A stretch of DNA of 64,000 nt, from contig JBGTEY010000003.1 in NCBI GenBank assembly GCA_041747555.1, forward strand, positions 19,127 to 83,126. Direction: 5' to 3'. Origin of the DNA: Patescibacteria group bacterium. GTDB lineage: Bacteria > Patescibacteriota > Microgenomatia > UBA1400 > PJMF01. Of the stretch, positions 26,612-51,607 are shown in pieces. How positions within the stretch are numbered: position 1 is the first letter of the stretch; each line of letters begins with the position of its first letter. Made by a program: the position numbers and the translations under genes. The notes under the pieces were generated by a model, which was given only the letters and a program-made list of their open reading frames with translations, had not been told where the DNA came from and did no database searches.

Positions 26612-26623
26612 ATAAGGAAAACC

Positions 26624-27031: not shown

Positions 27032-27090
27032 TCATCACCTCTGCATCAACACCGCGATCGCTGCATTCAGCGAAATCAAAACCCTCAACT

Positions 27091-27124: not shown

Positions 27125-27152
27125 TGTATAATGAATTAGTTGAAGTAAGTAC

Positions 27153-27605: not shown

Positions 27606-27644
27606 CTTCCTGTATCACAACATTGCTTGTGAAAATAATAAAAA

Positions 27645-27667
27645 CCCCTCTCCGGAGGGGTTTTTTA
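27645..27667 (+). terminator. Rho-independent terminator closing the pilin array
   Basis: The stem cccctc-tccg-gagggg is followed by tttttt. Confidence 0.7.
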
Positions 27668-27739
27668 GTGCTGCAGGATTAGTCTGATCACACCCCACTC
27701 CACTCGCCTGATATTTAATAATCAGGTATACTACAGTTC

Positions 27740-28177: not shown

Positions 28178-28234
28178 GTTTTATCACCAACTCACTTGGT
28201 TTTCCTCACCTCAATACCCTGATATACTATCCTT

Positions 28235-32745: not shown

Positions 32746-32922
32746 ACAAAAATACTAGGAGTGTGTCATTTTTATACCAGTCCACATTTGTAAATACAAG
32801 TAGTACTGCAAATATGATCATAAAAATGCCACTATTGTGCGCCTCACTCACGCTTAAAACAGCCGTCAACTCAATGAAATCCACCGTAGGCGGATCTCTC
32901 CTGTCTGCTATAATAAAACGCA

Positions 32923-34611
32923 ATGTTGAAAAAAGCTGCCACTTGGCTATTGATCGCAGTCTGCGTTTCTAGTGCATTTTTTGCGCTATCTCCAAGTATC
33001 GCTTTTGCTCAGGATGAAGAATATGCACCCTACAGCGCAGGTCAGGCAATGCTTGATAAAGAGCAGTACGATGCAGCTATCCGAAATTGCGACACCCCCT
33101 CACTTGAGTGCTTAGTGCACCAAATTTATAAATTTTCGATGATTGAATCAGTTAATTCAATTGCATACCGAGAAGGTCTGTCCGGCCCTGATGCTGGAGC
33201 TGGCATTAATGGTGGTACACAGGTCGCAAGATCTGGAGGTTTTGTTGGTGATGTTTTTGGGCTAATTGGCACATTTTATGAACAACCTCCTGCACGCACT
33301 AATGTTTGGGTGGCTGACACACTTGAAAGCATGAATATCGCGCAGCCCGCACAGGCTCAAGGCCTTGGGTTTGCAGCGCTCGACCCTATTCTCGATCTCT
33401 GGAAATTATTTAGAAATGTAGCATATGTGTTTTTTGTAGTTATTTTTGTGATTATTGGTTTCATGATCATGTTTCGCACCAAAATAGGTGGTCAAACTGC
33501 CGTAACCGCCCAACAAGCCATCCCCAGCATCATTATTAGCTTGATACTCGTTACATTTTCCTATGCCATCGCTGGATTTATGATTGATTTGATGTACGTG
33601 ATAATGTTCCTGATGGTTGGACTCTTCGGCACAACGATGACCACACAACAACCAGATATCATTAGTTGGAACATACTAGAATTAATGGGACACCTTTTCA
33701 AACATCCTGAGATAAGTAGCTTTAGTGGTAATGTTGACACAATTACTACCATGATTGAGGGAATGGCTGACAATGAAGCAATTGCTGGTGTTGGTGGCTT
33801 AATTGGTGGCATCACCCTTACGTTTGTGCTGGCTATAGCAATCCTTATCGGCACGTTTAAGCTCTTCTTTGAGTTACTCAAGTCATACGCAAGTATTGTG
33901 CTTGATGTGATTATTGCCCCAATTTACTTGATGGTCGGTGCAATTCCCGGCAGACAAGGGGTGTTTAAAGATTGGATTCGCGACTTAGCTGGAAACCTTG
34001 CGGCTTTTCCTGCCGTGCTACTTATGACGATCTTATTTTATGAATTTAGCGAAAACCAAGCGTTTCAAAGTGTTGACGACTACGGTGGTTTCATGCCTCC
34101 ATTTCTATTAGGTAGAGGCCAACCTGGCGCAATATCTTCACTACTAGGCTTGGCAATTATTTTGGCACTACCAGAGATCGTGAAGGAAGTTAAGACTGCA
34201 GTTGGAGCTAAAGAAGGTATTGGTACGAAGATTGCCGGATGGGCAGCATCGACAGCGAAGCAAGGTGTACCGTTGGGTGGACGAGCAGCGAGCATTCCTA
34301 TTGGCGGTGCGCTCGGTGCTGCGGGCAAGATGGTTGGCAATTTACCTGAAGCTAGAAGAAACAAAAGTCTGGAACACTTATTTGACGGAACTCTTGGCGC
34401 AGCAAGAAGAGGCGCTGGCAGAGGTGTTGAGGCAACAAGTTGGGCATCGAGGTCTATGGGAGCAAATCAACCAGATGTTCTCAACCTCATTACAAACCCA
34501 ATTGATAAAGTGCTAGGAAGTGATTCTATGAGAAGACAAGAAGCGTTCCAGCAGGCATATGAAGACGTCTTCCAAAGAGGCAGGAGTGTCTCTTCTCGCG
34601 ACCCCAAGTAG
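32923..34611 (+). CDS. Polytopic membrane protein with signal peptide; candidate VirB6/TrbL-like T4SS channel subunit
   Basis: Signal ...SIAFAQ, a ~150 aa extracytoplasmic head, then 6 or more TM helices and a Gly/Ala-rich cytoplasmic tail. The call rests on topology, size and T4SS context only. Confidence 0.35.
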   Translation: MLKKAATWLLIAVCVSSAFFALSPSIAFAQDEEYAPYSAGQAMLDKEQYDAAIRNCDTPSLECLVHQIYKFSMIESVNSIAYREGLSGPDAGAGINGGTQVARSGGFVGDVFGLIGTFYEQPPARTNVWVADTLESMNIAQPAQAQGLGFAALDPILDLWKLFRNVAYVFFVVIFVIIGFMIMFRTKIGGQTAVTAQQAIPSIIISLILVTFSYAIAGFMIDLMYVIMFLMVGLFGTTMTTQQPDIISWNILELMGHLFKHPEISSFSGNVDTITTMIEGMADNEAIAGVGGLIGGITLTFVLAIAILIGTFKLFFELLKSYASIVLDVIIAPIYLMVGAIPGRQGVFKDWIRDLAGNLAAFPAVLLMTILFYEFSENQAFQSVDDYGGFMPPFLLGRGQPGAISSLLGLAIILALPEIVKEVKTAVGAKEGIGTKIAGWAASTAKQGVPLGGRAASIPIGGALGAAGKMVGNLPEARRNKSLEHLFDGTLGAARRGAGRGVEATSWASRSMGANQPDVLNLITNPIDKVLGSDSMRRQEAFQQAYEDVFQRGRSVSSRDPK

Positions 34612-34708: not shown

Positions 34709-37700
34709 CTAATGATCTGCAGCCTGCTGCTGCTCTTTGATGGAGGGCTCTCTGAGGTAGCGCTTGAGTTTTCTATTGAATCGAGCCTCAAACCACCACG
34801 GCGATCGAATTTTGAAATTGATAGCTGGGATCGTAAATTCAGGAATAGCTGGTAGCTTGACCTTTTTGGGCTTTTCGAATCCAATAGTTCTAAAGGCTTT
34901 GCCCCTCAACTTGGAGAACAGCCTTGTATCGTTGACATCTTCACCCTTCAGTCTGAGACTTGTACCGTCTACAATTTTTTGCACCACGTAATCCCTTAAT
35001 ACATCTGGGAAGGTCTCTGCTTTGTTAAAGAGCTCTACTGAAACATCTCTAAATGACTTTGCCTTTACGAGTCTAGTTGGTTTTTTCGACTTCTCGTCAT
35101 ACTGATCGTAAATATCTTTTACATACCTCAATATCATCTCCTGACACGCTCCGATGAAGACATCGTAATAACGTGTTCCAACTAGGATGGGGTAAATTCC
35201 CTTGAGAGGTGAAAAGGCTGAGATAATTTGTCCGATTCCACTCGAGAGATCGTCCTCGTGTGTCAAGGTTGGTGGCTTGTTTGCGAGATTCACAAACTCT
35301 AACCATGAATTCATCGTTTTTATATACTCTGTGTATGTAATACCGCCATAATCACCCCCATCTCTGTCCAGAATGAGGTCCCAAATATAAGGGAAGAATG
35401 CCAGATCATCACCAACTTCAATTCCCCTCATCTTAGAAAGTGTTATTCTTCTATCAACCAACTCTCTGGCCTCAATAAATTCTTCCACATTGTCATCACC
35501 TTTGACCTTGGTTTTCCATTCAGTTCCTGTATTCCCCCTATATTTGAACCTACTCACATCTGGTGAGCGCTCCCCAGTGCTCTCAGATAGTACTTTCGTA
35601 CCATAGCGATCATTTGTGGGGAGTCGCAAGACCTGCCAAAGTATTTTTAGTTCTTTGGGAACGAATGCGAATGAGCGAATTTTATACATGATGTAGGACA
35701 TTGGCGACGCCTGCTTAATTGCAGAAATATCCCATGTTGGTTTATTTGTCTCAATGTATGCTGCCAAGTGAGGTGCATAGGCCTTTGCCCGCAGTTCCCC
35801 GATGAGCGCCATGAGTTGTATCCCAGTAATTGAAGATGGTTTTAAATCTGGGAAGAGAGCCTGAAGGACGTCACCTATGTTCAATTTTCCTTGCTTAAGT
35901 TCGAAATCTCTAGGATTTCCAAACCTACCATAATCATGCTCTAAGGGAATTGGTCTCCCGTTAACCAACTTTGTCGAACTCGACTCAACTACGAGAAGTT
36001 TTCCAATCACTGCTCCAGCATCGTTGCGAACCACTGGCGTACCTCCCCTCCCCTTATCAATCTTATGTATGGCAGGGTCGAGTGAAACTCGAGCACCTCC
36101 CATGAGAACGAAATTTTCTTTCTTTATCTCCTTTAGGCATCCAATATAGTCACCATTTTTATTTTTCAGTGGATTGCCATTATCGTCAACGTATGTGATT
36201 GTGCCGGCTAGAAATAGTTCTTCGATTTTCTCTGCTGCTCTATAATTTTCGGGGTCACTGAGAAATTCACGCATATCTGCCAAGCCAACCTCACCGCTAA
36301 TTTTTGCTCTCGATTCATCAAGGCTATCCCAGGCAAGTTGATTAAAGACATCTGAATTAGCAGCCCCAATAAATGCATCCCACAACAGCAATTTAATTGC
36401 CCATTCTTTTTTAGCTCCTATTTCTTCAGCAATTTCTCTAATTCTTTCTGCTTTCTTTAAAATTACTCCTTCGGAACCAGAACCTTTAGATGGTTTTTCT
36501 GATGAAACAATTTGACCGTATAGGACCTCCAGCTCATTTTCAAGCCTTTCCCTCTCTGGTAATCGCTGAGCAATATCAATTGCCTCAGTGAGGTGCTCTA
36601 CCGCCTTGGCGTGTCTACCAGATAAGTTATTTTCTCCAACGAGGTAGTTAATTATTTCTATAATTATTGGATTGTGGTCGTAATTTGCTCTGTTAAGTAA
36701 ATCTCTTGTCTGAGCGGCTTGGTATGCAGCATCAAGCGCTATTTTTATTGCTTCAAGAGAGGCCTTGGTGTGTGCGTCTGCTCGACTAGAGTGTGGCGCG
36801 ATATTCGCCAAATCGATATCTAGCGTAGTGTCAACAGCATCTGATAGCGGCTTCACCAACTGTCTGTACTGAGCCACTTCTTCACGTTCTGTGCCTAGCT
36901 TAATAGCCTCGGCATTTCGTGCTTCTCTTTCGTTGGCTCGCTGCAGCAATTTCTCTAAATGTTGCTTTCTGAGTGCATCTGTCGTCCTACGCACCAATGA
37001 CTCAAGCCTTGACAACTGGTTCCTCAACTCTTGTTGTTGTTGAGCAAGGTCTTGTTGAGAGGCTGGTACGCCCGTGTTTAATATATCAAGCAAATTCTTT
37101 AGGAGACCTGCCTCATATTTTTGTTTCCAATCTTCAAATTCTTTGTTTTTTAATCTCTTCACCCGAGTCTCAACATCTGCCAAAACTTGCTCGGCTGGCT
37201 TGACATATTCCCGATCTAAGAAGTCGGCAACTTGCCTTTTATTTCCACGAGATGAGCCTGGAATTTCGGAGTCAGCAATAGCATCTTTCAACCCACTCAG
37301 AAAAGTTCGTAGCTTACTCACATCTCTATCTTTTTCTGGATTCCAGTCGGGTTCATTCGCCAATCTAGTGGCAATTGAGGTCATGAGTGGTCCAACTTTT
37401 TTGGCGTCATCGGGATGCTTATCTGCAGGCCAGTTGGCTACGTCAATTTCTCTTGGTTGCTGAGGTTGATCAGGTGGTTGTGCCAGAGGTTCGCCGGTGA
37501 GCGCTCTGACTTCGCGTATCAAATCGTCAATTTCATCACTCCTTGGGCCAATGCTCATGTACTCCCGCGAGAGCTTGTCAATTTCTTTTTCCAAAAGAGT
37601 TCGGCCATACACTCCTGCGTCCCTTTTCAAACCAAGTAGTCTATCCTTGAATGGTTGAAATAAGTCAGCAGCTTCAGCTTTCTTTTGTGGATCTTTCGCC

Positions 37701-37933
37701 TGATTCTGACGCAGAGCTGCAAGTTCTTTTGCCGTTTCTATCAAGTCAATTAAGTTATTTAATTGGTAAATATCACCCTCCGCCTCATTGGTGCGGTTAT
37801 CAAGAACGTCCGCTTTTTCATCCAACACCTCATGGTCTGACTTGGCATCATTAATGAGATCGTTTATTTCCTTCACCAAATCTTTAAGTGGTTTGGAGTA
37901 GTCTTCGCTTCGCGATGTGGTTTCTTTTACCAT
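34709..37933 (-). CDS. Large hypothetical protein (1074 aa), N-terminal coiled coil, no signal peptide
   Basis: A long uninterrupted ORF. The N-terminal 300 aa is heptad/charged-rich. No catalytic motif is recognised. Confidence 0.4.
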   Translation of the reverse strand: MVKETTSRSEDYSKPLKDLVKEINDLINDAKSDHEVLDEKADVLDNRTNEAEGDIYQLNNLIDLIETAKELAALRQNQAKDPQKKAEAADLFQPFKDRLLGLKRDAGVYGRTLLEKEIDKLSREYMSIGPRSDEIDDLIREVRALTGEPLAQPPDQPQQPREIDVANWPADKHPDDAKKVGPLMTSIATRLANEPDWNPEKDRDVSKLRTFLSGLKDAIADSEIPGSSRGNKRQVADFLDREYVKPAEQVLADVETRVKRLKNKEFEDWKQKYEAGLLKNLLDILNTGVPASQQDLAQQQQELRNQLSRLESLVRRTTDALRKQHLEKLLQRANEREARNAEAIKLGTEREEVAQYRQLVKPLSDAVDTTLDIDLANIAPHSSRADAHTKASLEAIKIALDAAYQAAQTRDLLNRANYDHNPIIIEIINYLVGENNLSGRHAKAVEHLTEAIDIAQRLPERERLENELEVLYGQIVSSEKPSKGSGSEGVILKKAERIREIAEEIGAKKEWAIKLLLWDAFIGAANSDVFNQLAWDSLDESRAKISGEVGLADMREFLSDPENYRAAEKIEELFLAGTITYVDDNGNPLKNKNGDYIGCLKEIKKENFVLMGGARVSLDPAIHKIDKGRGGTPVVRNDAGAVIGKLLVVESSSTKLVNGRPIPLEHDYGRFGNPRDFELKQGKLNIGDVLQALFPDLKPSSITGIQLMALIGELRAKAYAPHLAAYIETNKPTWDISAIKQASPMSYIMYKIRSFAFVPKELKILWQVLRLPTNDRYGTKVLSESTGERSPDVSRFKYRGNTGTEWKTKVKGDDNVEEFIEARELVDRRITLSKMRGIEVGDDLAFFPYIWDLILDRDGGDYGGITYTEYIKTMNSWLEFVNLANKPPTLTHEDDLSSGIGQIISAFSPLKGIYPILVGTRYYDVFIGACQEMILRYVKDIYDQYDEKSKKPTRLVKAKSFRDVSVELFNKAETFPDVLRDYVVQKIVDGTSLRLKGEDVNDTRLFSKLRGKAFRTIGFEKPKKVKLPAIPEFTIPAINFKIRSPWWFEARFNRKLKRYLREPSIKEQQQAADH

Positions 37934-38228: not shown

Positions 38229-38250
38229 CCTCTTAAACGAGGAGTTTTTT
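38229..38250 (+). terminator. Terminator-like hairpin (ctcctc-ttaaac-gaggag + T6) abutting the annotated start of the downstream gene
   Basis: Read directly from the sequence at 38229-38250. Confidence 0.45.
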
Positions 38251-40147
38251 GTTAGCCACACCAGAGAGATCCCCATCATTTAGGCACGCCAAAGTTCGAT
38301 TCGGTGAACGCGTGAACAGAAATCTTGATCAAATTTCTGCGCTGCTTTCCAGAAGAAAACATGAGCTTTGGGACTCAAGCGCATATTTTAATCATCTTTT
38401 GATCTCTAAAAATGCAAGGCAAAGCACGCAGCGTCTCAAGCTCGATCTCACCACTTTTTTCCATGAATACGTTGGCATGTTCTGGAAAAAAATCTATCCC
38501 TACTCCAAGTACGGTATTTTTGACGGGTATGACGTGCCAATGAGTCAGTTGGGATGGAATTTTGAAAGATTGCTCAAAAATGAAGGTAAATGCACAATTC
38601 GTGCCAGCCTCGAAACACTCGGAATGCAAACTTTCGAAGACTGGGCTGATGATGCAACAGTGCCAATTGGTGCAGCGCTGCTCTACATCAGTCCTCGGGG
38701 ATCAAGAACTAAAGAAAACTATCCAGGATTTGAAAAAGAAAATTATGTTTTTATCAATATTTTTCAAAAAATTGGTTTAAATCAGCACCAACTTATTCAG
38801 TACACGAGCTTTGACGGCGAGGATGCGCTTGAAAAATTACAGCTTGACGTGCTCAAGTCATGCACTGGATCGTCAATCACCACCCACTCCAATCAAGTAA
38901 ATACCGATGACTTATCACAATCACACAGCATTATCGCAAGGAAAATTAAACTCCCTACTTGTTTTTCAATCAAAGACATTGAAGAAAAAGTCTACGAACA
39001 TGAATCAAGTTGGCCGACTAAACGCAAGGATTTACCCCAAGTAGACGAAGTTCAGTTTGGGTTCGAGCTCGAGCGACTACTTAAATTCTGTGAATCTGCA
39101 TTCTTGACCCTAGCGCATCAAAATCACGAATCTTCTGAGGAGCTAAAACCATCACATCTGCAAAAATTTGCCGAATTCCACCAAGAAATTGATGGCGCAT
39201 CTTTACCACCAGAGAAACAATTTGACATACTCATCGCCTGCGCCCGGAAAGAATTTTTAAAATGGGTGCAAGATCATTCAGAAAACTACCACACCAAGTC
39301 GATCACACTGCAGCCACTTGCTCTGGAAAAGATCGTTGAGTTGTGGGGGCACGAATGTCTTAAGGAAACCAGGCAACTCAAGGGCAAGCAAAAATCACAC
39401 CTTAGAGAACTGCATGAGTCGATTGCTCTTGACCCAACTCTTCCGCTCATGAAGCTCTCAAGTCTTGCGCACTGCATTGCCTTCACTCCCCACTCAGTTG
39501 CACTGAATTTAGTAAAGTTTCCACAGGTAAGTTGGGGAGTCGGGATGTCTGCCCAGCTACTAAACCTTTCTTCTTTAGAAAAATCGGACGCGCTCGCGGA
39601 GCTCAAGCAACACTATGTGCAAAAAAACCTTTTTGGTCAGCGGTGGTATATTTTGCGAACTGAAAGTCATGAGTACACCGAACTCACCTGCATACTTAAA
39701 AATGGAGACGTGATTGGTCCGTGTGGCATTCCACTCAACGAAGATCGTGAATTTTGCCTATCAGCCGAAGCTTATGACCAGCTACTGTCAACGCTCAGCG
39801 TCAACAGTCCACACACAAAGCTTACTACGTTACAATCACATTTTAACAACTCAGATCTCACACAAGATGAAAAAAATCATGCAGATCAATTTATGACATT
39901 TCTCGAGACGCTTGTTCGACACACCGCAAGTTTACTCGAATTTATAAACAACGATTTTTACTCACCGCTTGCAAACCAGATACTTGCGCTCATAGAAGAA
40001 CTTCCCGATCCGCTTATGATTGTTAAAAGCCCTCATTTTTTTGTTAAAAAAATAGCAGTATTTCTCCAAGATATCGATGAAACCCTCCTCCCGCTCTTTT
40101 TCTCTCAAGAACTCCGCACCTCACCAACAGTGAAAAAAACGGTATAA
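38249..40147 (+). CDS. hypothetical protein (632 aa)
   Basis: A long ORF with no signal peptide. The TTG start at 38249 lies inside the T-run of a hairpin, so the true start may be downstream (first Met at codon 76). Confidence 0.4.
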   Translation: MLATPERSPSFRHAKVRFGERVNRNLDQISALLSRRKHELWDSSAYFNHLLISKNARQSTQRLKLDLTTFFHEYVGMFWKKIYPYSKYGIFDGYDVPMSQLGWNFERLLKNEGKCTIRASLETLGMQTFEDWADDATVPIGAALLYISPRGSRTKENYPGFEKENYVFINIFQKIGLNQHQLIQYTSFDGEDALEKLQLDVLKSCTGSSITTHSNQVNTDDLSQSHSIIARKIKLPTCFSIKDIEEKVYEHESSWPTKRKDLPQVDEVQFGFELERLLKFCESAFLTLAHQNHESSEELKPSHLQKFAEFHQEIDGASLPPEKQFDILIACARKEFLKWVQDHSENYHTKSITLQPLALEKIVELWGHECLKETRQLKGKQKSHLRELHESIALDPTLPLMKLSSLAHCIAFTPHSVALNLVKFPQVSWGVGMSAQLLNLSSLEKSDALAELKQHYVQKNLFGQRWYILRTESHEYTELTCILKNGDVIGPCGIPLNEDREFCLSAEAYDQLLSTLSVNSPHTKLTTLQSHFNNSDLTQDEKNHADQFMTFLETLVRHTASLLEFINNDFYSPLANQILALIEELPDPLMIVKSPHFFVKKIAVFLQDIDETLLPLFFSQELRTSPTVKKTV

Positions 40148-40155
40148 TCGAGAGT

Positions 40156-41823
40156 ATGGTCGACGACTCAACGACAGTTACTGTAGTGCCTGAAAATACT
40201 CAACCTGAACATCAGGGGGAGATGCTCGAACCTGGGTACACCAAAATCGATTCAATTCCACAATTTAGCCAAGCGCTTACTCGAGATGAGGTGTATGAAA
40301 TATTGGCACGCATTGGCAATATTTACACCAGCAAAGGGTTGATTGGCCAACAAACAATATATTTAAAAACCGAGAACAGCCCGGGCTGGGAAGAGTTCAT
40401 TAGTGAGGATGTATCTACCACTTCCCGCAGCGATAGGAAGGGGTCGCAGCCACTCAGATACAGCACGCTCTTCAGTCTTTTTGGCGCACTTGGTTTTTGG
40501 CTCAAGAATCATGGCTATCCTAAGTTAACTGAGTTTAGCAACCCCACAACCTGGATGCGTCAAATGATGCTTGAGGGGGAGGTGGATAGAGAAACCAACT
40601 CAATTTCTGAACTTTCGCTCTCAAACAGTGAGCAGTTACATGAGACCGCCCTCCGCCTGTATCAAGCAGCGCTGAGAATAGAAAATAACGACCCAAGCAC
40701 ACCAAAAACCACAAGCGCACAGCTCTTTCCCAAAACCGATCTCGTTTTAGCGTTCGCAAACTACATAGATCTACCAGAAAAAGAGGATGAAGAGACAGAT
40801 CCTGAAAGCGGTGGTGAAGCTGGTGATGACGTCGCAGTCACCGATGACACGCTCCAGGCGCAAGTTTCTCAACCCCAAGTTGCCCCACAAGAAACGCAAA
40901 CACCAGAAGAAACAGCGACACAAACCCCAAGCTCCGAGCGAGCACGAAAAATTAGATACGAATCAGCCTGGCTATATAACCGAGCGTTAGCCGATCTATT
41001 TTATAGCAATGGTATTCAACTTGATCAAATTCCCGCAGATTTAAGAGCTCAACTTCTCGCAGAAGTCACCATGCTTGCCAGCCAACAAAGCGACGAGGCC
41101 CTCGCGCTCATCTTTGCCAGTCCAAGCAAGCGCCAAGCACTACTCAATCAGCTGTACGGCAGACTACAAGCATCACCCTATTTTTCCAAGCTAAGTGCTT
41201 TTTACACCCAAAGACTCAATGAAACCACTGACCCACAACAAAAGAAAGAGCTCGAAGTAAAGGTAGAGCAAAACCTGGGACCAATATCTGGCGGGGCTGT
41301 CGTAATTACTTCCATACAACCCCAAAATCAAGAAGACATTCTTGAAATGTCGATTCAAGAGATATTGCACTCTGATAACCCAGTTGTCATAAGAAACATC
41401 AGGCGCACTATTGACTCATTTGTTCATGCATACGGCGTTAATTCCGTAATTCCAGATGATGAAGAAAGAGCTCGTCGCCAAGCACAAAACCCAGCTGATG
41501 CTCTCTGGTTTATTCATACGCTTTCAAAAGGCAAAATTGCACTAATTTTTCAGATTGAACAAAATCTCAGTGCCAGAGATGTTTCTCGACTTAAGGAGCT
41601 ACTCTCTGACTATGCAGTTGTTACCGCCACCGAACGTATTCTCGACGGTCGATCAATTGGAATTGCGTATGGCGCCTTTCCGATTACAGCAGTAGAGCAA
41701 CAAGCGCTTATTGGTGGTGGTGAAAAAGCTGAGCAAGTTTTTTCACAGCATGTACGAGTAATCAATGACGTTCGACAATTAGTTGCTGAAACAGATGGTG
41801 GCGTCGTTGCAGCTGCACTTTAG
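40156..41823 (+). CDS. hypothetical acidic protein (555 aa)
   Basis: A long ORF with no signal peptide and an acidic, Thr/Gln-rich central linker. Confidence 0.4.
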   Translation: MVDDSTTVTVVPENTQPEHQGEMLEPGYTKIDSIPQFSQALTRDEVYEILARIGNIYTSKGLIGQQTIYLKTENSPGWEEFISEDVSTTSRSDRKGSQPLRYSTLFSLFGALGFWLKNHGYPKLTEFSNPTTWMRQMMLEGEVDRETNSISELSLSNSEQLHETALRLYQAALRIENNDPSTPKTTSAQLFPKTDLVLAFANYIDLPEKEDEETDPESGGEAGDDVAVTDDTLQAQVSQPQVAPQETQTPEETATQTPSSERARKIRYESAWLYNRALADLFYSNGIQLDQIPADLRAQLLAEVTMLASQQSDEALALIFASPSKRQALLNQLYGRLQASPYFSKLSAFYTQRLNETTDPQQKKELEVKVEQNLGPISGGAVVITSIQPQNQEDILEMSIQEILHSDNPVVIRNIRRTIDSFVHAYGVNSVIPDDEERARRQAQNPADALWFIHTLSKGKIALIFQIEQNLSARDVSRLKELLSDYAVVTATERILDGRSIGIAYGAFPITAVEQQALIGGGEKAEQVFSQHVRVINDVRQLVAETDGGVVAAAL

Positions 41824-41910
41824 CGGAATAACTCAGAGGGGTTTAGAGAAGTCGAATATAAAATATTTCTCCCTCTCTGGAATAGTCTCTCTCCAGCAGA
41901 GCAAAGATTT

Positions 41911-44900
41911 GTGTATCAAAAATTTAATATACCTTTCAAAAAATTCGAGAATAAACTCGACTCTCTACCGCTTATTGAACAATTTTTCTCATTTAGATTA
42001 AAAGACTTGGATAGATTTAGAGCACTGAGTGAGCTTGAGCAAGAGGCGGTCATTTCTGGCAAGATTAGCCAGCTGCAATCATCTACAAGTGCGATAACCG
42101 CACTTGAAAAAAAACTCGAAGAAACTCACCGATTGTCGCTCGCTCCACCCACCGGCATTGGCCTTGCCTTAGAAAAATTATCTGCTCTTGAGAGAGATAT
42201 TTTAAGACTCGGCCAGACGTTACCTGCAGGCTCCCCAGAACTTAGTCGACTTCAGCAATCGGTGGCAATTGCTCGAGTCCAACTAGAAAAACAACGCACT
42301 GCAACTGCTCGTTTTATTGATGTTGACTTTCAGTCTCAAGCTGGTCTTGCGGCTCTGAAATCAAGACTCGATCCCTTAGCGCAAGATCAGTCTCGAGTTG
42401 GTGCAGAGATAGACACAATAAAATCTCAAGTAGGAGGGCTTGAACAGTCGGTTTCTCGATTTGAAAGCACAACCAGCCCAACATTTATTGCTCAAACAGA
42501 AGCAGCTACCACACTTCATCAACTTCGCAATAAACTTTTGCGCCAAATAGAGCGGTCTCCATCAAGTGTTCAATTGCGAGATATTGAATCAGCTATTCAA
42601 CACATAGAGCAGCTTATAACCACTGAACAACAAGCAGTTAGACAAGCTGAAGTTGGTGGAATAGATTCTAGCTCAACTTCGCAACCTACCCAAAGCATGG
42701 GCAAGAAACTACTAGATCAAGCCCCTTCGGTCAAAGCTCTCGAAGAACTCAGGGGGCAACTCAAATCAATCTTACGGAGGCGTGGTCGTGATCAAACAGT
42801 GGTAAGGGAAATACAAGAGCAAATTACCGCTGTTCATGAGCGGTTAATCAATTTAAACAGAGCTCGGCAGGCAGCATTTGGTCAAGGAAATACCGCTTCA
42901 CTTTCTGCTCTCGCTGCTATTCGAACCGATCTAGATGCATTGGGCGACCGACAACCGCGAACTTTATCCGCTATCCAAGCTATTAAGGGTCAGGTAGGAA
43001 CGATTGAGCGAAAAGTAATCGAAGATCAAAATAATTCCAGCTCCCCACTTGAGGCACAAACAGATGCAATTTTATCACTCGGGCAACTCAGAACCCAACT
43101 CGAACATCAAATAAAACTATCACCTTCGAACTCTAAACTGCGCAGGATAGAAAATGCAATTCAAAAAATAGAACAGCAAATAATTCGTGAGCAACGCGCT
43201 ATTAAGAGAATTGAGGCTGGAAACAATGATCCCAATTCAATTAATACCGTTGTCTCAAGCGCAGGAGTTAGTTTTTTTGAACAATCACCCTCAATTATCG
43301 CTCTTGAGGAGCTAAAAAACCAACTACGACTGCTCTCTGGCATGCAGGATCAATATCGCATGGAGGTCATCGATATTCAACAAAAGATTTCTGCAGTTCA
43401 TAAACGATTAGAAGACACGCGGAGATCACTTGCAATTCCTTTCGAATTGTCTGGGCTCAGCGAGAAGGACATAGAAGTCGCTACACTTCTTGAACTAGTT
43501 AGAGCTCATGAAAAAAATCGACTATCTATTGAAGTGGCTGCAGGGATAAGAGAAAAGCTCCTTCAGGGTAGAAGCGCGCAGGAGATCGCACTATTGCTTG
43601 CATATCTGGAGCAAGGGAGTCGCGTGAGTTTGGGATATCAGGATAGCGCGGGCGATGGTGCATATGACGTTGGGAGTTTAGATGATTACAGCTTGAGTGC
43701 AATTGCTGGAGCTGACGAAATGCTCTCTGAGGGTGGTGGTGCATCGACTGGAATTGCTCAAAGATTTAACAATTGGCGTCATGGGAGTAACCGATCAAAA
43801 TTACAAAGAGGTTTTAATTACGCGACCAACAAATTAATGTCTCGAGGTGCGCAAGCGCTGTCTCCATGGGCAGCGGGTGCGCTCGCCATATCAAACAGAT
43901 TAATTGGTGAAGAAAATACCAATCGAGTTATCGGTGGCACACTCGCACTCATGATTGGTACCACCGTTGCCGCACTCAGCTCTTGGGGAGGCCGAATTGG
44001 CGCTCTCCTTGGTGGAACCCTTGGTGGTGTGGTGGGCTCGTATGTACCGGTCTTGGGCACAGCTGTTGGCGCAGTAGGCGGTGGTATCGCGGGTGGCTTG
44101 GCTGGGCATGTCTATATTCAGCCAGTTCTGGATAAAATTTTTGGCACCGGAACAGCGGAGTCAAGCGCGGGCTTTTCTGGTGCAAACTTAGGGAACCTCA
44201 ATCTTGGATCGCCTTCTGTGGCAGGTCAACTTCCGGGCGGAGTTGGTGCCAGCACTGGTTTGGGTGTCTCGAGCTCAGCAACACCTGGGGTAACTTTGGG
44301 TTCTAGTGGAGCCACTACTGCTGCTATGGCACCAACGCTGGGCACGGTTGCAGGCACCGGAGGTGCTGGTGTCGCGAGTGCCGGACTTACAGGAGCGGGC
44401 AATGCTGGATTAGGCACAGGAGTGGGCGCCACCCAGGCTAGTATTTGGGAAACATTAGTTAAATCACTGGGTGAGTTCTCTGTTGGAACTGTAGCACCCA
44501 TAGGCGCGATGGTGTTTGGCATAACATCGTTCACATTCACAATGTGGATTATTTTTGCTGCATTTTTAGCACCACTTCCCCTTGAGCCAGGCGCTGGATC
44601 TCAAACTCCGGGGTTTATCGAGGGATTTCAAGGATGTTGGCCGACAACGGGCACAATTAGCGGATATTTAACGTATTCATCTGATGGATCACAGCATGCA
44701 ACTATGCCAGGTGGATATGGTGGATTTGCTGGGCCAGGCACTGCTATCGATATTTCTACCGGTAGCAATCAGCCACCAATTTACTCCCCGTATTCTGGTA
44801 CAGCTGATTTTTATCCCAATGGTCATGGAATAAGCACTCTATACGGTACTCATGTGGTTCTCACCACCCCTGATTTTGTAATTATTTTTGCTCACATGAG

Positions 44901-45918
44901 AGATTTTGGTTCCGCAGCTACGATGAATGGACCAACAATGGATGTACCAATCATAGCTGGCCAACAAATAGGATTTGTAAATAGTACGGGCAACTCCACC
45001 GGAAACCACCTCCACTATGAAGTAATAGGAGACCCACCCATTACTATCCTAAGTCTTTTGCCTCTGAGCAACAGTTTTAAACAAGCTATCACTGTGAGTG
45101 AAGAAACAATTTTTGGTCTCCCCGTCAGCTCCACCGACTGCGCAATTAAAAATCTTGGTGATGCAACAGGGTTTATGGCCATCGGACCAAAAGAGATAAA
45201 TAATTTATTAATGTCTAGCACTGCAGAAATCAATCAAGGACCAATTAGAACCTGCACTTGGCAACAAAATCGAAATCTAGAAGCTGCAATTAATGCAAAC
45301 TTCTTTAATGCCAGTTTACTCCCCGTTGGTATTGCAGGAAACAATCCTGCCAAGTACTGGGAGAATGCAGATAATAGAGACATCACTTTTATTGAACAAA
45401 TGCAATCATTAGTGGTAACCTCTTCAACCGACTCAATCATTATGACCAGACCAGATCCCGACTTAGCGTATTCTCCCGCGAATGACTTTCCAATTGATCT
45501 ACCCGAATATAGCTCCGGCATCACCGGTCTCTATGTTGAGGGTGATAGCAGCACAAGTGATGTAAGGAATAGAACGCTAATAGGAACTGGAGTTGCTTCT
45601 GCTGATTGCTCAACTGAGTACGCAGGTGATGAGGTGATCTTCCTCCTAGTAATGAATAGCGCGACATTTGATGAAATTGAGCAAGAGGCTAGACGATGCG
45701 GAGCTACCGAAGTTATTCATCTCGATGGTGGTGGTTCAAGTGCATTTTGCACGAATGATCCTAACTACAATTTCGCGACAACAACTCCTGTTCCGGTAAA
45801 TGTTGGACTGTACCGCGCTGAGTTATTTTCAATTATTGAGGAAGATGGCGAGACCATCATTCAACCAGAACCAGGTGGAGGCGCGAACGACCCCGAACCA
45901 CCAATCGCACCAATCTAA
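41911..45918 (+). CDS. Multidomain cell-wall hydrolase candidate: coiled-coil tandem repeat, Gly-zipper segment, M23 peptidase, phosphodiester-glycosidase-like C-terminus
   Basis: Two ~186-aa repeats lie at aa 145-330 and 331-515 (ALEELRGQLK/ALEELKNQLR; ITAVHERL/ISAVHKRL). A Gly-zipper segment follows: GGTLGGVVGSYVPVLGTAVGAVGGGIAGGLAG. The M23 domain carries GTAIDISTG...PYSGTADF and GNSTGNHLHYEV (HxH). The C-terminus has EVIHLDGGGSSAF, the NAGPA-type DGGGSS motif. Confidence 0.65.
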   Translation: MYQKFNIPFKKFENKLDSLPLIEQFFSFRLKDLDRFRALSELEQEAVISGKISQLQSSTSAITALEKKLEETHRLSLAPPTGIGLALEKLSALERDILRLGQTLPAGSPELSRLQQSVAIARVQLEKQRTATARFIDVDFQSQAGLAALKSRLDPLAQDQSRVGAEIDTIKSQVGGLEQSVSRFESTTSPTFIAQTEAATTLHQLRNKLLRQIERSPSSVQLRDIESAIQHIEQLITTEQQAVRQAEVGGIDSSSTSQPTQSMGKKLLDQAPSVKALEELRGQLKSILRRRGRDQTVVREIQEQITAVHERLINLNRARQAAFGQGNTASLSALAAIRTDLDALGDRQPRTLSAIQAIKGQVGTIERKVIEDQNNSSSPLEAQTDAILSLGQLRTQLEHQIKLSPSNSKLRRIENAIQKIEQQIIREQRAIKRIEAGNNDPNSINTVVSSAGVSFFEQSPSIIALEELKNQLRLLSGMQDQYRMEVIDIQQKISAVHKRLEDTRRSLAIPFELSGLSEKDIEVATLLELVRAHEKNRLSIEVAAGIREKLLQGRSAQEIALLLAYLEQGSRVSLGYQDSAGDGAYDVGSLDDYSLSAIAGADEMLSEGGGASTGIAQRFNNWRHGSNRSKLQRGFNYATNKLMSRGAQALSPWAAGALAISNRLIGEENTNRVIGGTLALMIGTTVAALSSWGGRIGALLGGTLGGVVGSYVPVLGTAVGAVGGGIAGGLAGHVYIQPVLDKIFGTGTAESSAGFSGANLGNLNLGSPSVAGQLPGGVGASTGLGVSSSATPGVTLGSSGATTAAMAPTLGTVAGTGGAGVASAGLTGAGNAGLGTGVGATQASIWETLVKSLGEFSVGTVAPIGAMVFGITSFTFTMWIIFAAFLAPLPLEPGAGSQTPGFIEGFQGCWPTTGTISGYLTYSSDGSQHATMPGGYGGFAGPGTAIDISTGSNQPPIYSPYSGTADFYPNGHGISTLYGTHVVLTTPDFVIIFAHMRDFGSAATMNGPTMDVPIIAGQQIGFVNSTGNSTGNHLHYEVIGDPPITILSLLPLSNSFKQAITVSEETIFGLPVSSTDCAIKNLGDATGFMAIGPKEINNLLMSSTAEINQGPIRTCTWQQNRNLEAAINANFFNASLLPVGIAGNNPAKYWENADNRDITFIEQMQSLVVTSSTDSIIMTRPDPDLAYSPANDFPIDLPEYSSGITGLYVEGDSSTSDVRNRTLIGTGVASADCSTEYAGDEVIFLLVMNSATFDEIEQEARRCGATEVIHLDGGGSSAFCTNDPNYNFATTTPVPVNVGLYRAELFSIIEEDGETIIQPEPGGGANDPEPPIAPI

Positions 45919-45935
45919 GGTGTACTATACTAACA

Positions 45936-46919
45936 ATGACCATGGAAAAGATTCGTACCATCATCAGATGGTTTAAAGCACTACCAATCCAATTCAAACT
46001 CTTCGTATTTGTTGTGGTACTCTTGGCGATCTCAGGTATTTTGCGCCTGATTACCCCAGAAGTAACGCCAGAATCTATATTACTCCCAATTACGTCGGGG
46101 GTGGTGGGGCCAAAATCACTAGAGTCTGTGACTATATCTGGCGACCTCCCTCAACTTTCAGAGGAAGTTCCACTCTATCAGGGTGCAAACGCCACCGTTT
46201 CACCTGTTGAATTTGCTACATTTCTTGCTTCACAATTTGGTTTACCCAAATCGAGAGAACTTCCCAACCGATGGGTGGATTCTGAGAGCGGCATTTCTAT
46301 AGACTACAGGGATTACAGTAAACAAATTTTATATCTCCAGTACTTTGAAGAAACAGATGAAAATGCAACGCCCAACCGTGAGCAAGCCATCTCAGTTGCA
46401 GAAACCTTCATCAAAGACACGCTTGGGATTGAAAATGTTTCCCCTCAAATTGCTAATGTGCAGTTTCATGGTGAAGAATCTGTTGTTACTCAAGCAAACG
46501 CCACCCATGTTGTCGTGCCATTTGTTTTTGCCATAGATGGAATTCAAACGTACTACGAGGGAGCAAGGGACACATACGCACTGGTCTACATAGATGCAGA
46601 ATCTAGAGTAGTCAAGGCAGAATTTTTCACCCCACCGCCAAATCCGACGCAGTATGCAGTTGCAGATCCTCTCAATAAAAATACCCTCGAGCGATCAATT
46701 AAATCTGGAAATGGAGAAATAATCGGTTCAACAAGTGTACAGCGTTTCACCATTACTGACTTACAAAATCTCGATATACAACTTATTGAACTGGAGTACC
46801 GATACTCGGTTCGAGATAATCGATTTTACCCGTACTTTCGCATGATTGGAGACGGCGAAACAGCCGACGGCACGATCGCGCGGGTGACTCTCATTCACCC
46901 AGCAGTGGAACTCCAGTAG
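45936..46919 (+). CDS. Bitopic membrane protein (N-terminal TM + about 270 aa external domain); possible VirB8/TcpC-like scaffold
   Basis: TM helix LFVFVVVLLAISGILRL. The assignment rests on topology and synteny (between the hydrolase and the PrgI-like gene) only. Confidence 0.3.
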   Translation: MTMEKIRTIIRWFKALPIQFKLFVFVVVLLAISGILRLITPEVTPESILLPITSGVVGPKSLESVTISGDLPQLSEEVPLYQGANATVSPVEFATFLASQFGLPKSRELPNRWVDSESGISIDYRDYSKQILYLQYFEETDENATPNREQAISVAETFIKDTLGIENVSPQIANVQFHGEESVVTQANATHVVVPFVFAIDGIQTYYEGARDTYALVYIDAESRVVKAEFFTPPPNPTQYAVADPLNKNTLERSIKSGNGEIIGSTSVQRFTITDLQNLDIQLIELEYRYSVRDNRFYPYFRMIGDGETADGTIARVTLIHPAVELQ

Positions 46920-46940: not shown

Positions 46941-48158
46941 ATGCGCGAGCACCCAATTCCCACAGATATCACCAACTATCGTTTTCATATAATCGGAACG
47001 ATGACGCTCAAGCAGTTTGGTGAGGTTGCGCTCGGAGTAATTGTCGCGTTTTTGCTGTACATGACCAATTTGCCTGTGGTAGTTAAATGGCCATTGATCA
47101 TTTTTTCAGTCGGACTTGGGGGGGCTGCTGCCTTCATCCCTATTGCCGAGCGTCCGCTCGATCACTGGATCGTGACATTCTATAAAGCACTTTACAAACC
47201 CACTCAATTTTTCTGGAAACGAACAGAGCGAATTCCAGAACCTTTCCTATTTAAACCACGTGATAATGAAAAACCTCAAGAAGAAGAGCTTGATTTAACA
47301 CCCTACAAGCGTCAGAGAATTAAAGAATATCTTCACTCTGTTCCCTCTGAAACACCCTATAGTCCTTCGTTTACAGAAGATGAAACTGCCAGAATGCAAA
47401 GTATTCTTGACTCATTTTCAACAACGCCCGTAACTTCCACATCGTCAACGCCAATTCGTGAAAACGCCGTCAAACCAACGCTTTCGGTAAGGGTGCGGGA
47501 CATTCGAGCACCAGAATCTAACGATCTTACTACACCAATTCTTTCCCAAGCAGCACCGACTACTGCCATTCTTCCTCAAGCAACTGAAGAATCTCCCATA
47601 AGCCCAGCAGCACTTTTTGAAACATCAGAATTACTACCCGATCAAGAACAAAGCGCGAGCAAACGCTTGATTGACCAAACACCTCAAGTATCCACACCGT
47701 CAGAACTCAACCAAACCCATCAAGATCACACTATTATTCATTCAACACAAGATACTAAAACTAATACACCAACTGTCGAAATAGCCGCTGATGAGATAAT
47801 TCAAGTTGCGGCACCCTCGCGCACCTCAAGTCAATCAAGGCATATTCCTGAAAGTACCACCAACGACGACGATCTCTCCTTATTTCCAGATCTTCCAACA
47901 GAACCAAACAAAATTGTTGGTATAGTGGTCACTCAAAACAATGAACTTATCCCCGAAGCAATTATTGAAGTAAAAAATGACCGTGGAGAAGTGCAGCGGG
48001 CTGTAAAAACTAATGCCTTGGGTCAATTTTTCATCACAACTCCTCTCATGGATGGTGATTACACGATAACAATTGAAAAAGAAGACTTTGTATTTGAGCC
48101 GTATCAAATTCAACTCAGTGGCCAAGTCGTTCGCCCGATCAAAATACAGAGCTTGTAA
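46941..48158 (+). CDS. PrgI/VirB3-like membrane protein fused to Pro/Thr/Ser-rich linker and C-terminal beta-sandwich (carboxypeptidase-regulatory-like) domain
   Basis: The N-terminus PIPTDITNYRFHIIGTMTLKQFGEVALGVIVAFLLYM matches the PrgI-family pattern (VPKDIRxYxEKxxGGLTLRQF + TM). The C-terminus IVGIVVTQNNELIPEAIIEVKNDRGEVQRAVKTNALGQFFITTPLMDGDYTITIEK resembles a CarbopepD_reg fold. Confidence 0.5.
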   Translation: MREHPIPTDITNYRFHIIGTMTLKQFGEVALGVIVAFLLYMTNLPVVVKWPLIIFSVGLGGAAAFIPIAERPLDHWIVTFYKALYKPTQFFWKRTERIPEPFLFKPRDNEKPQEEELDLTPYKRQRIKEYLHSVPSETPYSPSFTEDETARMQSILDSFSTTPVTSTSSTPIRENAVKPTLSVRVRDIRAPESNDLTTPILSQAAPTTAILPQATEESPISPAALFETSELLPDQEQSASKRLIDQTPQVSTPSELNQTHQDHTIIHSTQDTKTNTPTVEIAADEIIQVAAPSRTSSQSRHIPESTTNDDDLSLFPDLPTEPNKIVGIVVTQNNELIPEAIIEVKNDRGEVQRAVKTNALGQFFITTPLMDGDYTITIEKEDFVFEPYQIQLSGQVVRPIKIQSL

Positions 48159-49477: not shown

Positions 49478-51607
49478 ATGAAAAACTTCCTGCAATCACT
49501 ACCGTTTCCGTTTGGTAAAAAGAAAAAACCAGACGAGCCAGTTACAGACCAAGCTGCACTTGCGCAAAAGCAACAAGAGGAACAGCTTGAGAAACTGAAA
49601 GCGTTTTCGCGTGGTCTTGTAACTATTCAGGATATTATTGCGCCTGAAGCGATTGAGGTTGATTTTACGTTTCAAAAAATTAATTCAACATACTCACGCA
49701 CTCTGTTTGTAGCTGGGTATCCTCGAAGTGTGCCAGCAAACTGGTTGTCACCATTGATTAATTTTCCACATAAGTTAAACATTTCACTTTTTGTGTACCC
49801 AATGGACTCGGGAGAGATTCTTGATAATCTCAAGAGAAAAATTACTGAAATGGAGGCAGAAATACAATCTGATCTTCGTGCAGGGAAAATCAGCAACATT
49901 AATACCGAGGTACAACTCGAAGATGCGCGATTTATTCGAGAAGAACTCGCAAAGGGCTCTGAGCGATTCTTCCAATTTGGGCTCTACACAACCATTCAAG
50001 CAGATAGTCTTGAAATGCTCGATAAAATTACCAAAAATATTCAGTCAACGCTCGGCTCACTCCTCATTGTTTCCAAGAAAGCTACGCTACAAATGGATGA
50101 TGGGTTTAAAACCACCCTCCCCATGGGCACAGACAAACTTCTCGTGACCAGAAACATGGATACCACCTCATTAGCAACGACGTTTCCATTCACTTCATCA
50201 GAGTTAACCATGGAAACCGGTATCATGTATGGCATTAATGAACATAATGATTCTCTTGTAATTTTCGACAGATTTAAGATGGAAAATGCCAACATGGTCA
50301 TTTTTGCCAAGTCCGGTGCTGGAAAATCGTATACAGTGAAGCTCGAAATTCTCCGTCAACTCATGTTTGGTGTTGAAGTGTTAATTATGGACCCTGAACA
50401 CGAATACGAAGAACTATGCAGCGCTGTTGGCGGTTCATATATCAACTTCACTTTTAGTTCTGATACCAAAATTAATCCATTTGATCTCTCAAACCTCTAC
50501 GAAGAAGGTGAAAATGAACTTGGACAGAAAATCATCTCACTCCACGGTCTATTGAAGGTTATGCTGGGTGAAATGACCCCTCAACAAGACGCCATGCTTG
50601 ACCGAGCGCTCGTTGCTGCATACAAAGCTAAAGGCATCACCCCCGATCCTGCAACCCAAACGAACGAACCACCACTCATGGAAGATGTCTACAAATCACT
50701 CATAGGTATGGAGGATAGTGACGCTAACGACATCGCTGCTCGGCTAGAAAAATACATCACTGGTTCATTTAGAGGTATTTTTGACCAAAAATCTAACATA
50801 AACATTACAAGTCAACTAACGGTCTTCTCTGTCAAAGAAATGGAAGAAGAGATGCGCCCGATTGCAATGTATATTATTTTAGATTTCATCTGGACTCGAG
50901 TGAAGAAAGATCTTAAAAAACGCCTCTTAATCGTTGATGAAGCCTGGTACTTCATGAAACATAAAGATAGCGCTTCATTCCTACACTCCATGGTTAAGCG
51001 CGCAAGGAAATACTACCTCGGAATTACAACAATCACTCAGGATGTGGAAGACTTCTTGCATAATGACTACGGAAAAGCGATCGTAACTAACGCGTCCATT
51101 ATGTTTTTGATGAAGCAATCAACCGCATCCATCCCCATCTTAGCCGAAACGTTCTACCTATCTCAAGGTGAGCGACAACTTTTGGTGACTGCAGATATTG
51201 GAGAAGGTATTTTCTTCGCAGGTCAAAATCACGTCGCCCTCAGAGTAGTTTCTAGCGATGACGAACATGCAATTATTACCACCAATCCAGAAGAGCTTGT
51301 ACATAGAAAACGGATGAGAGCTGCTCAGGCACTCGCAAAAGTACAAGCTGCTACTCAAGAATCTTCAGACCAGAGCCAATCTCCCCAAACTTCACAAGCT
51401 ACCCGAGGCGTACTCGCTGGTAGTGCCCCCAACACACAGGCTGCCCCCGCGTCTCCAGGTGCAAAGCCTATACAAACTGGATTCACCTCACAAAATGACA
51501 GCAATAAAACAGCCACTCCACCAGCTAGCGGTAGCGCAGAAGCTCAAGCACAATACAAAGATCCAACCCAAATGTATAGCATTGATGATTATCAGCCTCC
51601 TCAATAA
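49478..51607 (+). CDS. Type IV secretion VirB4-like ATPase (PrgJ/TcpF type) with Ser/Gln-rich C-terminal extension
   Basis: The N-domain IQDIIAPEAIEVDFTFQKINSTYSRTLFVAGYPRSV is typical of monoderm VirB4. Walker A is MVIFAKSGAGKSYT, followed by IMDPEHEYEE. Walker B is LLIVDEAWYF. Confidence 0.8.
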   Translation: MKNFLQSLPFPFGKKKKPDEPVTDQAALAQKQQEEQLEKLKAFSRGLVTIQDIIAPEAIEVDFTFQKINSTYSRTLFVAGYPRSVPANWLSPLINFPHKLNISLFVYPMDSGEILDNLKRKITEMEAEIQSDLRAGKISNINTEVQLEDARFIREELAKGSERFFQFGLYTTIQADSLEMLDKITKNIQSTLGSLLIVSKKATLQMDDGFKTTLPMGTDKLLVTRNMDTTSLATTFPFTSSELTMETGIMYGINEHNDSLVIFDRFKMENANMVIFAKSGAGKSYTVKLEILRQLMFGVEVLIMDPEHEYEELCSAVGGSYINFTFSSDTKINPFDLSNLYEEGENELGQKIISLHGLLKVMLGEMTPQQDAMLDRALVAAYKAKGITPDPATQTNEPPLMEDVYKSLIGMEDSDANDIAARLEKYITGSFRGIFDQKSNINITSQLTVFSVKEMEEEMRPIAMYIILDFIWTRVKKDLKKRLLIVDEAWYFMKHKDSASFLHSMVKRARKYYLGITTITQDVEDFLHNDYGKAIVTNASIMFLMKQSTASIPILAETFYLSQGERQLLVTADIGEGIFFAGQNHVALRVVSSDDEHAIITTNPEELVHRKRMRAAQALAKVQAATQESSDQSQSPQTSQATRGVLAGSAPNTQAAPASPGAKPIQTGFTSQNDSNKTATPPASGSAEAQAQYKDPTQMYSIDDYQPPQ

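Follow-up and report, generated by a model that had tools for sequence, protein, structure and literature searches.

Which protein opens the cell wall for the chromosomal type IV secretion system (T4SS) of Patescibacteria is the question raised by a long open reading frame (ORF) in the DNA analyzed here, a stretch of 64,000 nucleotides from a Patescibacteria group bacterium (contig JBGTEY010000003.1, positions 19,127 to 83,126; hereafter the window, in whose own numbering all coordinates are given). A preliminary description of this DNA had presented the ORF at 41911..45918 (+ strand, GTG start, 1335 amino acids (aa)) as a T4SS-associated hydrolase. The ORF is present, but it does not stand as a unit of its own: judged by its frame and its homologues, it is the downstream 70% of a gene of about 1,919 codons that is interrupted by one nonsense codon. 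With a probability of about 0.6, we read this giant gene of ~1,900 aa as one that specifies a wall-opening component of the Patescibacteria T4SS, analogous to VirB1 and tethered to the membrane, and that is interrupted in the present genome. The giant protein would then be a concrete candidate for the wall-crossing component of this system, conserved, fixed in its position within the locus and testable in cultivable relatives. Residue numbers given below are those of the 1335-aa ORF unless marked "fused", which refers to the 40156-45918 reading frame.

The reading frame and the elements that bear on its continuity are the following:

40156..45918, + strand: giant T4SS-locus protein, full reading frame, with 1,919 sense codons and an internal TAG, an ATG start and a TATAAT at -13
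41821..41823, + strand: in-frame TAG that splits the gene, opposite Glu in four of five aligned homologues
41866..41916, + strand: motif FLPLWNSLSPAEQRFVY, in the apparent intergenic gap and overlapping the called GTG; a block of the N-terminal domain in P0003, P0015, P0016, P0014 and P0008
40939..42105, + strand: conserved N-terminal all-alpha domain (fused residues ~262-650), which spans the TAG

The ORF directly upstream (40156-41823, 555 aa) lies in a frame identical to that of the 41911-45918 ORF, the sole separator being the TAG at 41821-41823, and 29 open codons follow between this TAG and the GTG at 41911. The homologues used to judge the break came from an exhaustive homology search over 1.84 billion representatives, which revealed a family of long proteins; word-indexed searches with the full ORF or with its C-terminal 455 aa returned the query itself only, or 5 fragments. 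One family member, P0003 (1768 aa), aligns with the fused frame from residue 23 to residue 1894, straight over the stop, and P0014, P0015, P0016, P0010, P0007, P0005 and P0008 align from fused residue ~264 to 600-720, also over the stop, so that both parts of the frame are covered by single-ORF homologues of 1342-1768 aa. The TAG stands opposite Glu in P0003, P0014, P0015 and P0016 and opposite Thr in P0010, which points to a change from GAG to TAG. The codons of the apparent gap spell a clearly conserved motif, with the consensus FLPLWNSLSxxEQxxVY, that is common to the best-matching homologues and within which the called GTG is a Val; its Trp and Leu are invariant in A2 and nearly invariant in A3, two alignments of the N-terminal domain. 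Given the shared frame, the lone TAG and the homologues that align across both stop and gap, the true gene is therefore 40156-45918. For the annotation, this means that the two called ORFs belong together as a single interrupted gene, with a clearly conserved family motif in the supposedly intergenic gap between them. The domain that spans the stop was retrieved by phmmer in 13 family members. An AlphaFold2 (AF2) model, made for the P0003 orthologue, shows an all-alpha structure of 21 helices at a predicted local distance difference test (pLDDT) score of 77. The domain has no match in Pfam or NCBIfam, and none in the PDB by sequence or by fold (best E 0.57).

Reassignment of the TAG codon was rejected, since it is an ordinary stop in this genome that terminates 14 of 39 long ORFs, dnaA among them; no suppressor tRNA, nor any other tRNA or Rfam family, was detected within the 64-kb window. 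Across the window, 18 of 42 start codons have a -10-like hexamer (TAYMHT) that begins ~12-14 nucleotides ahead of them, compared with 3.7% for random 20-mers (examples are 40143-40148, 45926-45931, 32909-32914 and 28223-28228), and Shine-Dalgarno-like sequences are rare, which suggests that leaderless transcription is widespread in this genome. The start at 40156 has its TATAAT at -13; no -10 box or Shine-Dalgarno sequence precedes the GTG at 41911, and an independent start at this codon was therefore judged unlikely. Over 17,177 bases, TAG included, the sequence agrees fully with a second assembly, from SRR28170463, which probably derives from the same reads. The interruption may be either very recent, or a strain or base-call artefact, or tolerated through read-through. 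If the TAG were real and not read through, the product would be the first 555 residues only and the enzymes would not be made. Any inactivation would have to be very recent, since the window copy departs from the C-terminal alignment at no more than three near-invariant positions, Thr1292 being one of them; the remaining 1,364 codons are open.

The enzymes in question occupy the C-terminal end of the giant protein:

44635..45027, + strand: variant M23 (LytM-type) domain, residues 909-1039, by profile, fold and alignment
45274..45807, + strand: NAGPA-like phosphodiester glycosidase domain, residues 1122-1299, by profile, fold and alignment

Both had been proposed in the preliminary description. 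The M23 core is recognized by Pfam Peptidase_M23 (PF01551; aa 944-1039, 34.1 bits against a cut-off of 28.7). The profile of A1, an alignment of the C-terminal module in 14 sequences with 33-78% identity to the window copy, finds as its best PDB match 5j1l (chain A, E 5.6e-14), the Csd1/Csd2 heterodimer of H. pylori (5j1l/5j1m, deposited as TagE), with further matches to Csd3, NMB0315, ShyA, DipM, zoocin A, LytM and lysostaphin. The AF2 model of the C-terminal part (pLDDT 79.6) gave a Foldseek probability of 1.0 to EnpA, Csd1/2, LytM, lysostaphin and ShyA. Invariant in 14 of 14 sequences of A1 are CWPTxG (909-914), Asp947, His995 (in FAHM), His1033-Leu-His1035 and Glu1037; the HxH, the catalytic His and the Asp of M23 peptidases are present. 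The exception concerns the "GxD" that had been read as part of the core and that departs from the family: an HxxxD motif is absent, the position four before the invariant Asp947 being Gly943 (GPGTAID). We take Gly943 to occupy the place of the HxxxD His by mapping from the LytM sequence, and the A1 profile alignment to the Csd2 chain is consistent with this assignment. Metal binding and catalysis by the M23 domain are putative for this reason. Nearly all members of a wider CWP-type subfamily are without His at the canonical HxxxD spacing and have a conserved His, often in PHA[TV], 7-20 residues before the Asp; in the giant protein this is His929, 18 residues upstream, and either His929 or Cys909 could serve as the third metal ligand.

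The second domain had been noticed through its LDGGGSS motif, found at aa 1271-1277 (DGGGS at 1272-1276, nucleotides 45724-45738), and its assignment is upheld by profile and by fold. Pfam NAGPA (PF09992, DUF2233) matches aa 1122-1299 at a marginal 27.1 bits (cut-off 25), and the related protein P0027 scores 41.6 bits. Foldseek placed the AF2 model on vertebrate NAGPA from zebrafish (6pki/6pkg), guinea pig (6pky/6pku) and Xenopus (6u11) with probability 1.0 and E values of 1e-5 to 2e-4 over ~250-265 aligned columns, at an identity of ~9-14%; the A1 profile found no sequence-level match in the PDB for this domain. The residues invariant in A1 comprise N1128/N1130/N1133, P1138, G1140, G1143, Y1149 and D1272/G1274/S1276. 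The DGGGS motif of human NAGPA is invariant, and its catalytic D286 is essential (PMC13474241). Position 1292 (nucleotides 45784-45786), which lies 20 residues past the DGGGS Asp (18-20 in relatives), may be a phosphate-binding position of the domain and perhaps the counterpart of R316, the phosphate-binding Arg of human NAGPA; it is Arg or Lys in 13 of 13 relatives and Thr in the window copy. The pairing of M23 with NAGPA, earlier called unusual, is indeed uncommon but not unique, as it occurs in ~15-19 clusters at 50% identity and in the more distant P0027. An NAGPA-family domain is set here in a defined wall context, beside a peptidoglycan peptidase, and this suggests the wall-polymer linkage unit as a candidate substrate.

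How these domains would be held at the cell surface depends on the hydrophobic region that precedes them:

43921..44118, + strand: first hydrophobic cluster with Gly-zipper, aa 671-736, with repeated GxxxG and an Arg/Lys-rich stretch before it, by hydropathy
44119..44466, + strand: uncharged, low-complexity loop rich in Gly, Ala, Ser and Thr, aa 737-852, by composition
44467..44598, + strand: last long hydrophobic segment, aa 853-896, with a conserved AFLxPxP motif at its end, by hydropathy

The Gly/Ala-zipper, membrane-like segment of the preliminary description is thus confirmed in the two hydrophobic stretches, with 19 GxxxG within the 330 aa preceding the M23 domain; Pfam returned no Gly-zipper match, and no signal peptide was found in the giant protein. 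From the last hydrophobic segment to the invariant Cys909 there are 17 residues in the window copy and 11-22 residues in 16 of 16 relatives. Cys909 belongs to a set of six C-terminal cysteines that are invariant in A1 (909, 1077, 1115, 1233, 1263 and 1280). Hydropathy, charge and these conserved cysteines indicate that the protein probably has an N-in, C-out topology, with its coiled-coil part in the cytoplasm. Since the repeats of this part lie N-terminal to the transmembrane (TM) cluster of a protein that lacks a signal peptide, a cytoplasmic location is probable for them, rather than a role as an enzyme-bearing stalk. The earlier picture of hydrolases carried on a coiled-coil stalk is therefore probably wrong, all the more as the M23 domain begins so close to the last TM segment, and the enzymes would be kept near the cell's own membrane.

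The repeats themselves were located as follows:

42352..42915, + strand: repeat copy 1, a 188-aa heptad-rich unit, aa 148-335
42916..43443, + strand: repeat copy 2, aligned part, aa 336-511

The tandem repeat, for which a unit of ~186 aa had been given, was recovered with a period of 188 aa: an ungapped alignment of residues 148-323 with 336-511 shows 40% identity (70/176, E 3e-33), the corresponding DNA (42352-42879 and 42916-43443) is 51.5% identical, and a third, weaker echo of the end of the unit is seen at aa 62-80. The coiled-coil character claimed for it agrees with the heptad-rich composition of the first 620 residues, where 42% of 28-residue windows lie above the 95th percentile of shuffles, and NCBIfam adds a weak match to an SMC coiled coil. 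P0003 holds a single matching copy (37% identity to copy 2, E 1.7e-28; 32% to copy 1), and the 188-aa unit is undetectable in the other family members, so that the duplication is lineage-specific and the region fast-evolving.

The argument for a role in secretion comes from the position of the gene, four genes upstream of VirB4, and from the genes that follow it:

45936..46919, + strand: conserved 327-aa protein with one N-terminal TM segment and no Pfam match, always between the giant gene and the PrgI-like gene in related loci
46941..48158, + strand: PrgI-like (VirB3-type) protein with a C-terminal CarboxypepD_reg beta-sandwich, by Pfam; conserved in L010, L011 and L013
48194..49474, + strand: TrsD-like protein that resembles the N-terminal part of VirB4 (PF26593, TraC-like); a separate ORF
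49478..51607, + strand: VirB4 ATPase of the CD1110 family (NF045971, 382.4 bits against a cut-off of 325; P-loop_TraG)

Downstream of VirB4 lie dnaA, dnaN, rnpA, yidD and yidC. A homologue of the giant gene stands directly before the ~330-aa ORF and the PrgI-like, TrsD-like and VirB4 genes in ten related loci (L002-L007 and L010-L013, L012 being partial), seven of which also reach dnaA; the association with a T4SS asserted in the preliminary description, and the co-occurrence of homologues with VirB4 in other genomes, are both borne out. In six GTDB genomes (L002-L007) the order is the same through PrgI-like, TrsD-like, VirB4, DnaA and DnaN, and the giant homologue is encoded as one ORF of 1359-1611 aa. 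P0002 on L013, the closest relative, has these neighbours as well, and more distant relatives fill the same slot before the PrgI-like and TrsD-like genes, L011 also with a full VirB4. Five of these records (L002, L003, L005, L006 and L007) bear the title "Pseudomonadales bacterium", which looks mislabelled: in gene content and synteny they are clearly Patescibacteria, and one isolate has the name HK-STAS-PATE-15. A fusion of PrgI-like and CarboxypepD_reg parts is also present in L010 and L011, with CarboxypepD_reg at the equivalent position in L013. A split VirB4 produced by a frameshift was rejected, since all related loci that extend to the TrsD-like and VirB4 genes have them as two ORFs.

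The locus is a chromosomal, dnaA-adjacent T4SS of Patescibacteria and not a plasmid or integrative and conjugative element (ICE) system for conjugation. Woesebacteria and Pacebacteria give the best named matches to the ValRS of this genome, which makes it, as an approximate placement, Microgenomatia-like. Systems of this class, usually relaxase-free, are described in the available portion of Quinonero-Coronel et al. (2025, PMC12102498), according to which VirB1 homologues are rarely linked to virB4 in Patescibacteria and other enzymes may substitute for them; that portion contains no description of a giant M23-ending protein before PrgI. The earlier comparison with the VirB1 analogues of monoderm conjugation systems holds in so far as the giant protein is an analogue without an SLT, CHAP or NlpC/P60 domain, and fails in so far as this system is chromosomal and not conjugative. 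The lack of these three domains makes it reasonable to regard the protein as a non-homologous VirB1 analogue.

The C-terminal enzyme cassette is exchangeable among relatives, as judged from the differing modules that they carry. P0046 (L009/L010) combines M23 with a GDSL acylhydrolase and P0027 (L011/L012) combines M23 with NAGPA, in both cases with the position in the locus kept. Other long proteins, found in the same sequence search, end in M23 only, NAGPA only or SLT_3 with NAGPA; P0060, P0036 and P0056 are among those with NAGPA, either alone or with SLT_3. Among the structure matches in BFVD for the NAGPA-like part are phage proteins that bear the name phosphodiester glycosidase (from phages of Staphylococcus and Bacillus, for instance), and some of the matching phage proteins are annotated as endolysin, CHAP-domain protein, peptidase or N-acetylmuramidase. 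These annotations, like the pairing with SLT_3 in relatives, favour a wall-active role of NAGPA-like folds.

Taken together, we propose that the N-terminal two thirds of the giant protein would remain cytoplasmic, at the base formed by VirB4, TrsD and PrgI, where this large part presumably docks on the ATPase base, and that the C-terminal enzymes would be outside, anchored to the cell's own membrane. The M23 domain would cut the peptide cross-links of peptidoglycan, and the NAGPA-like domain would cleave sugar-1-phosphodiester links. The N-acetylglucosamine-1-phosphate (GlcNAc-1-P) link that joins secondary wall polymers to N-acetylmuramic acid would, by established wall chemistry, be the natural bacterial counterpart of the NAGPA substrate. 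Both activities combined would open a local gap in the wall for the T4SS channel and the VirB2-like pilus.

Several observations tell against such a wall-opening role in this cell. The gene is interrupted by a TAG in this genome, and hydropathy, charge and conserved cysteines form the whole basis of the topology. The NAGPA profile match is marginal, Thr1292 replaces the Arg or Lys of the relatives, and in the literature searched no substrate is reported for any bacterial NAGPA-family protein. On the M23 side the HxxxD His is missing, and His929 sits in a loop that AF2 modelled with low confidence. The swapping of modules, finally, fits an outward-facing, host-adapted function equally well as a housekeeping one. 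The interruption leaves a serious prospect, which we put a little short of even, that the gene is a recent pseudogene here or that the TAG is an artefact of sequencing or of strain consensus, the "1335-aa hydrolase" not being made as such. An ordinary stop codon opposite a conserved Glu, with no start signal before 41911 and no suppressor tRNA in the window, speaks for a pseudogene or an artefact, and the odd substitution T1292, Arg or Lys in 13 of 13 relatives, fits as well. Against this, 1,364 other codons are open with just 3 near-invariant positions deviating, the same base is found in two assemblies (though probably from the same reads), and all other genes of the locus are intact. We hold it unlikely that the M23-like domain is non-catalytic, that is, a degenerate LytM scaffold acting as a peptidoglycan binder or hydrolase activator, which would leave the NAGPA-like domain alone enzymatic, if any; EnvC, NlpD, SpoIIQ and Csd2 are examples of non-catalytic LytM-type modules. 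The zinc-ligand His of HxxxD is missing across the CWPT subfamily and the Pfam score is low (34 bits), but 14 sequences of 33-78% identity all keep Asp947, His995, His1033, His1035 and Glu1037, and degenerate LytM domains usually lose catalytic residues of that kind. Moreover, the subfamily-wide His (PHA[TV]) and the invariant Cys909 could provide the third ligand.

The exchangeable cassette bears on another doubtful alternative, in which the enzymes are a weapon directed at the host: the M23 and NAGPA-like domains would be released or shown at the contact site and would digest the wall of the epibiont's host bacterium, the NAGPA-like domain removing GlcNAc-1-P-anchored polymers and so opening the peptide bridges to M23. 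The module is swapped among relatives in the same locus slot (M23 only, M23 with NAGPA, M23 with GDSL), a diversification typical of host-adapted functions, NAGPA-like folds are present in phage proteins annotated as lysins, and in Saccharibacteria epibiotic growth requires the T4SS, as seen in the only species tested (Wang et al. 2023, PMC10633639; PMC12857230). However, the enzymes start only 11-22 residues past the last hydrophobic segment in all 16 relatives, a short tether that disfavours a host target, since without proteolytic release they would be confined to the cell's own wall, and the giant protein was not found to have a cleavage site, a secretion signal or a partner gene of the immunity kind. 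It is tempting to speculate further, at odds that we consider long, that the protein is the missing wall-breaching element of the T4SS with a swappable cassette matched to the host wall, the NAGPA-like domain cutting the GlcNAc-1-phosphate polymer anchor and thereby exposing the host peptidoglycan to M23. If this were true, the type of cassette would predict the host range, and no enzyme known earlier than this domain would cut the GlcNAc-1-phosphate link by which teichoic acids or other secondary polymers are anchored to peptidoglycan.

Within the preferred reading, that of a wall-opening VirB1 analogue, the closest parallels are the VirB1-type hydrolases PrgK of pCF10, TraG of pIP501, CwlT of ICEBs1 and TcpG of pCW3. 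The giant protein shares with them a T4SS locus beside VirB3-like and VirB4 genes, a membrane anchor, two different wall-active domains in tandem and a presumed local opening of the wall, which is here a prediction. In contrast to them, it has no SLT/lysozyme, CHAP or NlpC/P60 domain (no Pfam or NCBIfam match at E<=0.01) and has a variant M23 and an NAGPA-like domain instead, located C-terminally after ~1,480 residues that include the all-alpha and heptad-rich parts; its system is moreover chromosomal, outside any conjugative element. With the M23/LytM peptidases (LytM, lysostaphin, EnpA, Csd1/Csd2/Csd3 and ShyA) it has the fold, the HxH, the catalytic His and the Asp in common, whereas Gly in place of the HxxxD His, a CWPTxG motif of its own and the His 7-20 residues before the Asp set it apart. 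The likeness to NAGPA/DUF2233 proteins, such as the human uncovering enzyme and the structures 6pki, 6pky and 6u11, lies in the fold and in DGGGS with its Asp, while the identity of ~9-14%, the bacterial wall context and the Thr1292 in place of the family Arg/Lys are points of difference. The virion-associated lysins of phages (tape-measure, internal and ejection proteins that end in M23) are likewise very long, mostly helical proteins with a wall-degrading M23 module, which serves passage through a cell wall, but the giant gene has no phage context and is a syntenic component of the chromosomal T4SS in the related genomes examined.

The rest of the window agrees in its make-up with the chromosomal T4SS of Patescibacteria as far as these are covered in the available portion of PMC12102498 and in PMC10633639: a CD1110-type VirB4, TrsD-like and PrgI-like genes, a VirB2-like pilin array, proximity to dnaA and dnaN, and a distant gene similar to those of coupling proteins (T4CP). 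At 24254-28177 there is a row of eight small ORFs; each ends in two hydrophobic segments, and the N-terminus of most is signal-like. The Pfam family T4SS_pilin is matched by 27740-28177 and, below the cut-off, by the C-terminus of 20712-21899. By these features, the row corresponds to the array of VirB2-like pilins that is typical of T4SS loci in Patescibacteria. The T4CP-like ATPase (3991-6327, - strand, 778 aa, TrwB_AAD_bind and DUF87) lies ~43 kb from virB4, and no relaxase was detected among the 29 ORFs, a part of those in the window, that were scanned with Pfam. A polytopic ORF of 562 aa at 32923-34611, with ~7 hydrophobic segments and no Pfam match, is syntenic in five of six related genomes and is our candidate for a VirB6 analogue; few VirB6 homologues are reported from this class. 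The giant protein had been considered as an "extended VirB6", a view that was set aside in favour of this better candidate.

Three further large ORFs of the locus are without a Pfam match, at 28235-31759 (1174 aa), 34709-37933 (- strand, 1074 aa) and 38249-40147 (632 aa), the first two being partly conserved in related loci. Elsewhere in the window we found genes for a GH3 (NagZ-like) glycosidase (9197-10444, - strand), an ATP-dependent DNA ligase (13775-15562, - strand), a Fic-domain protein (15584-16675, - strand), a SpoIID-domain protein of 594 aa (18858-20642, - strand) and a DUF4012 protein of 1016 aa (57208-60258).

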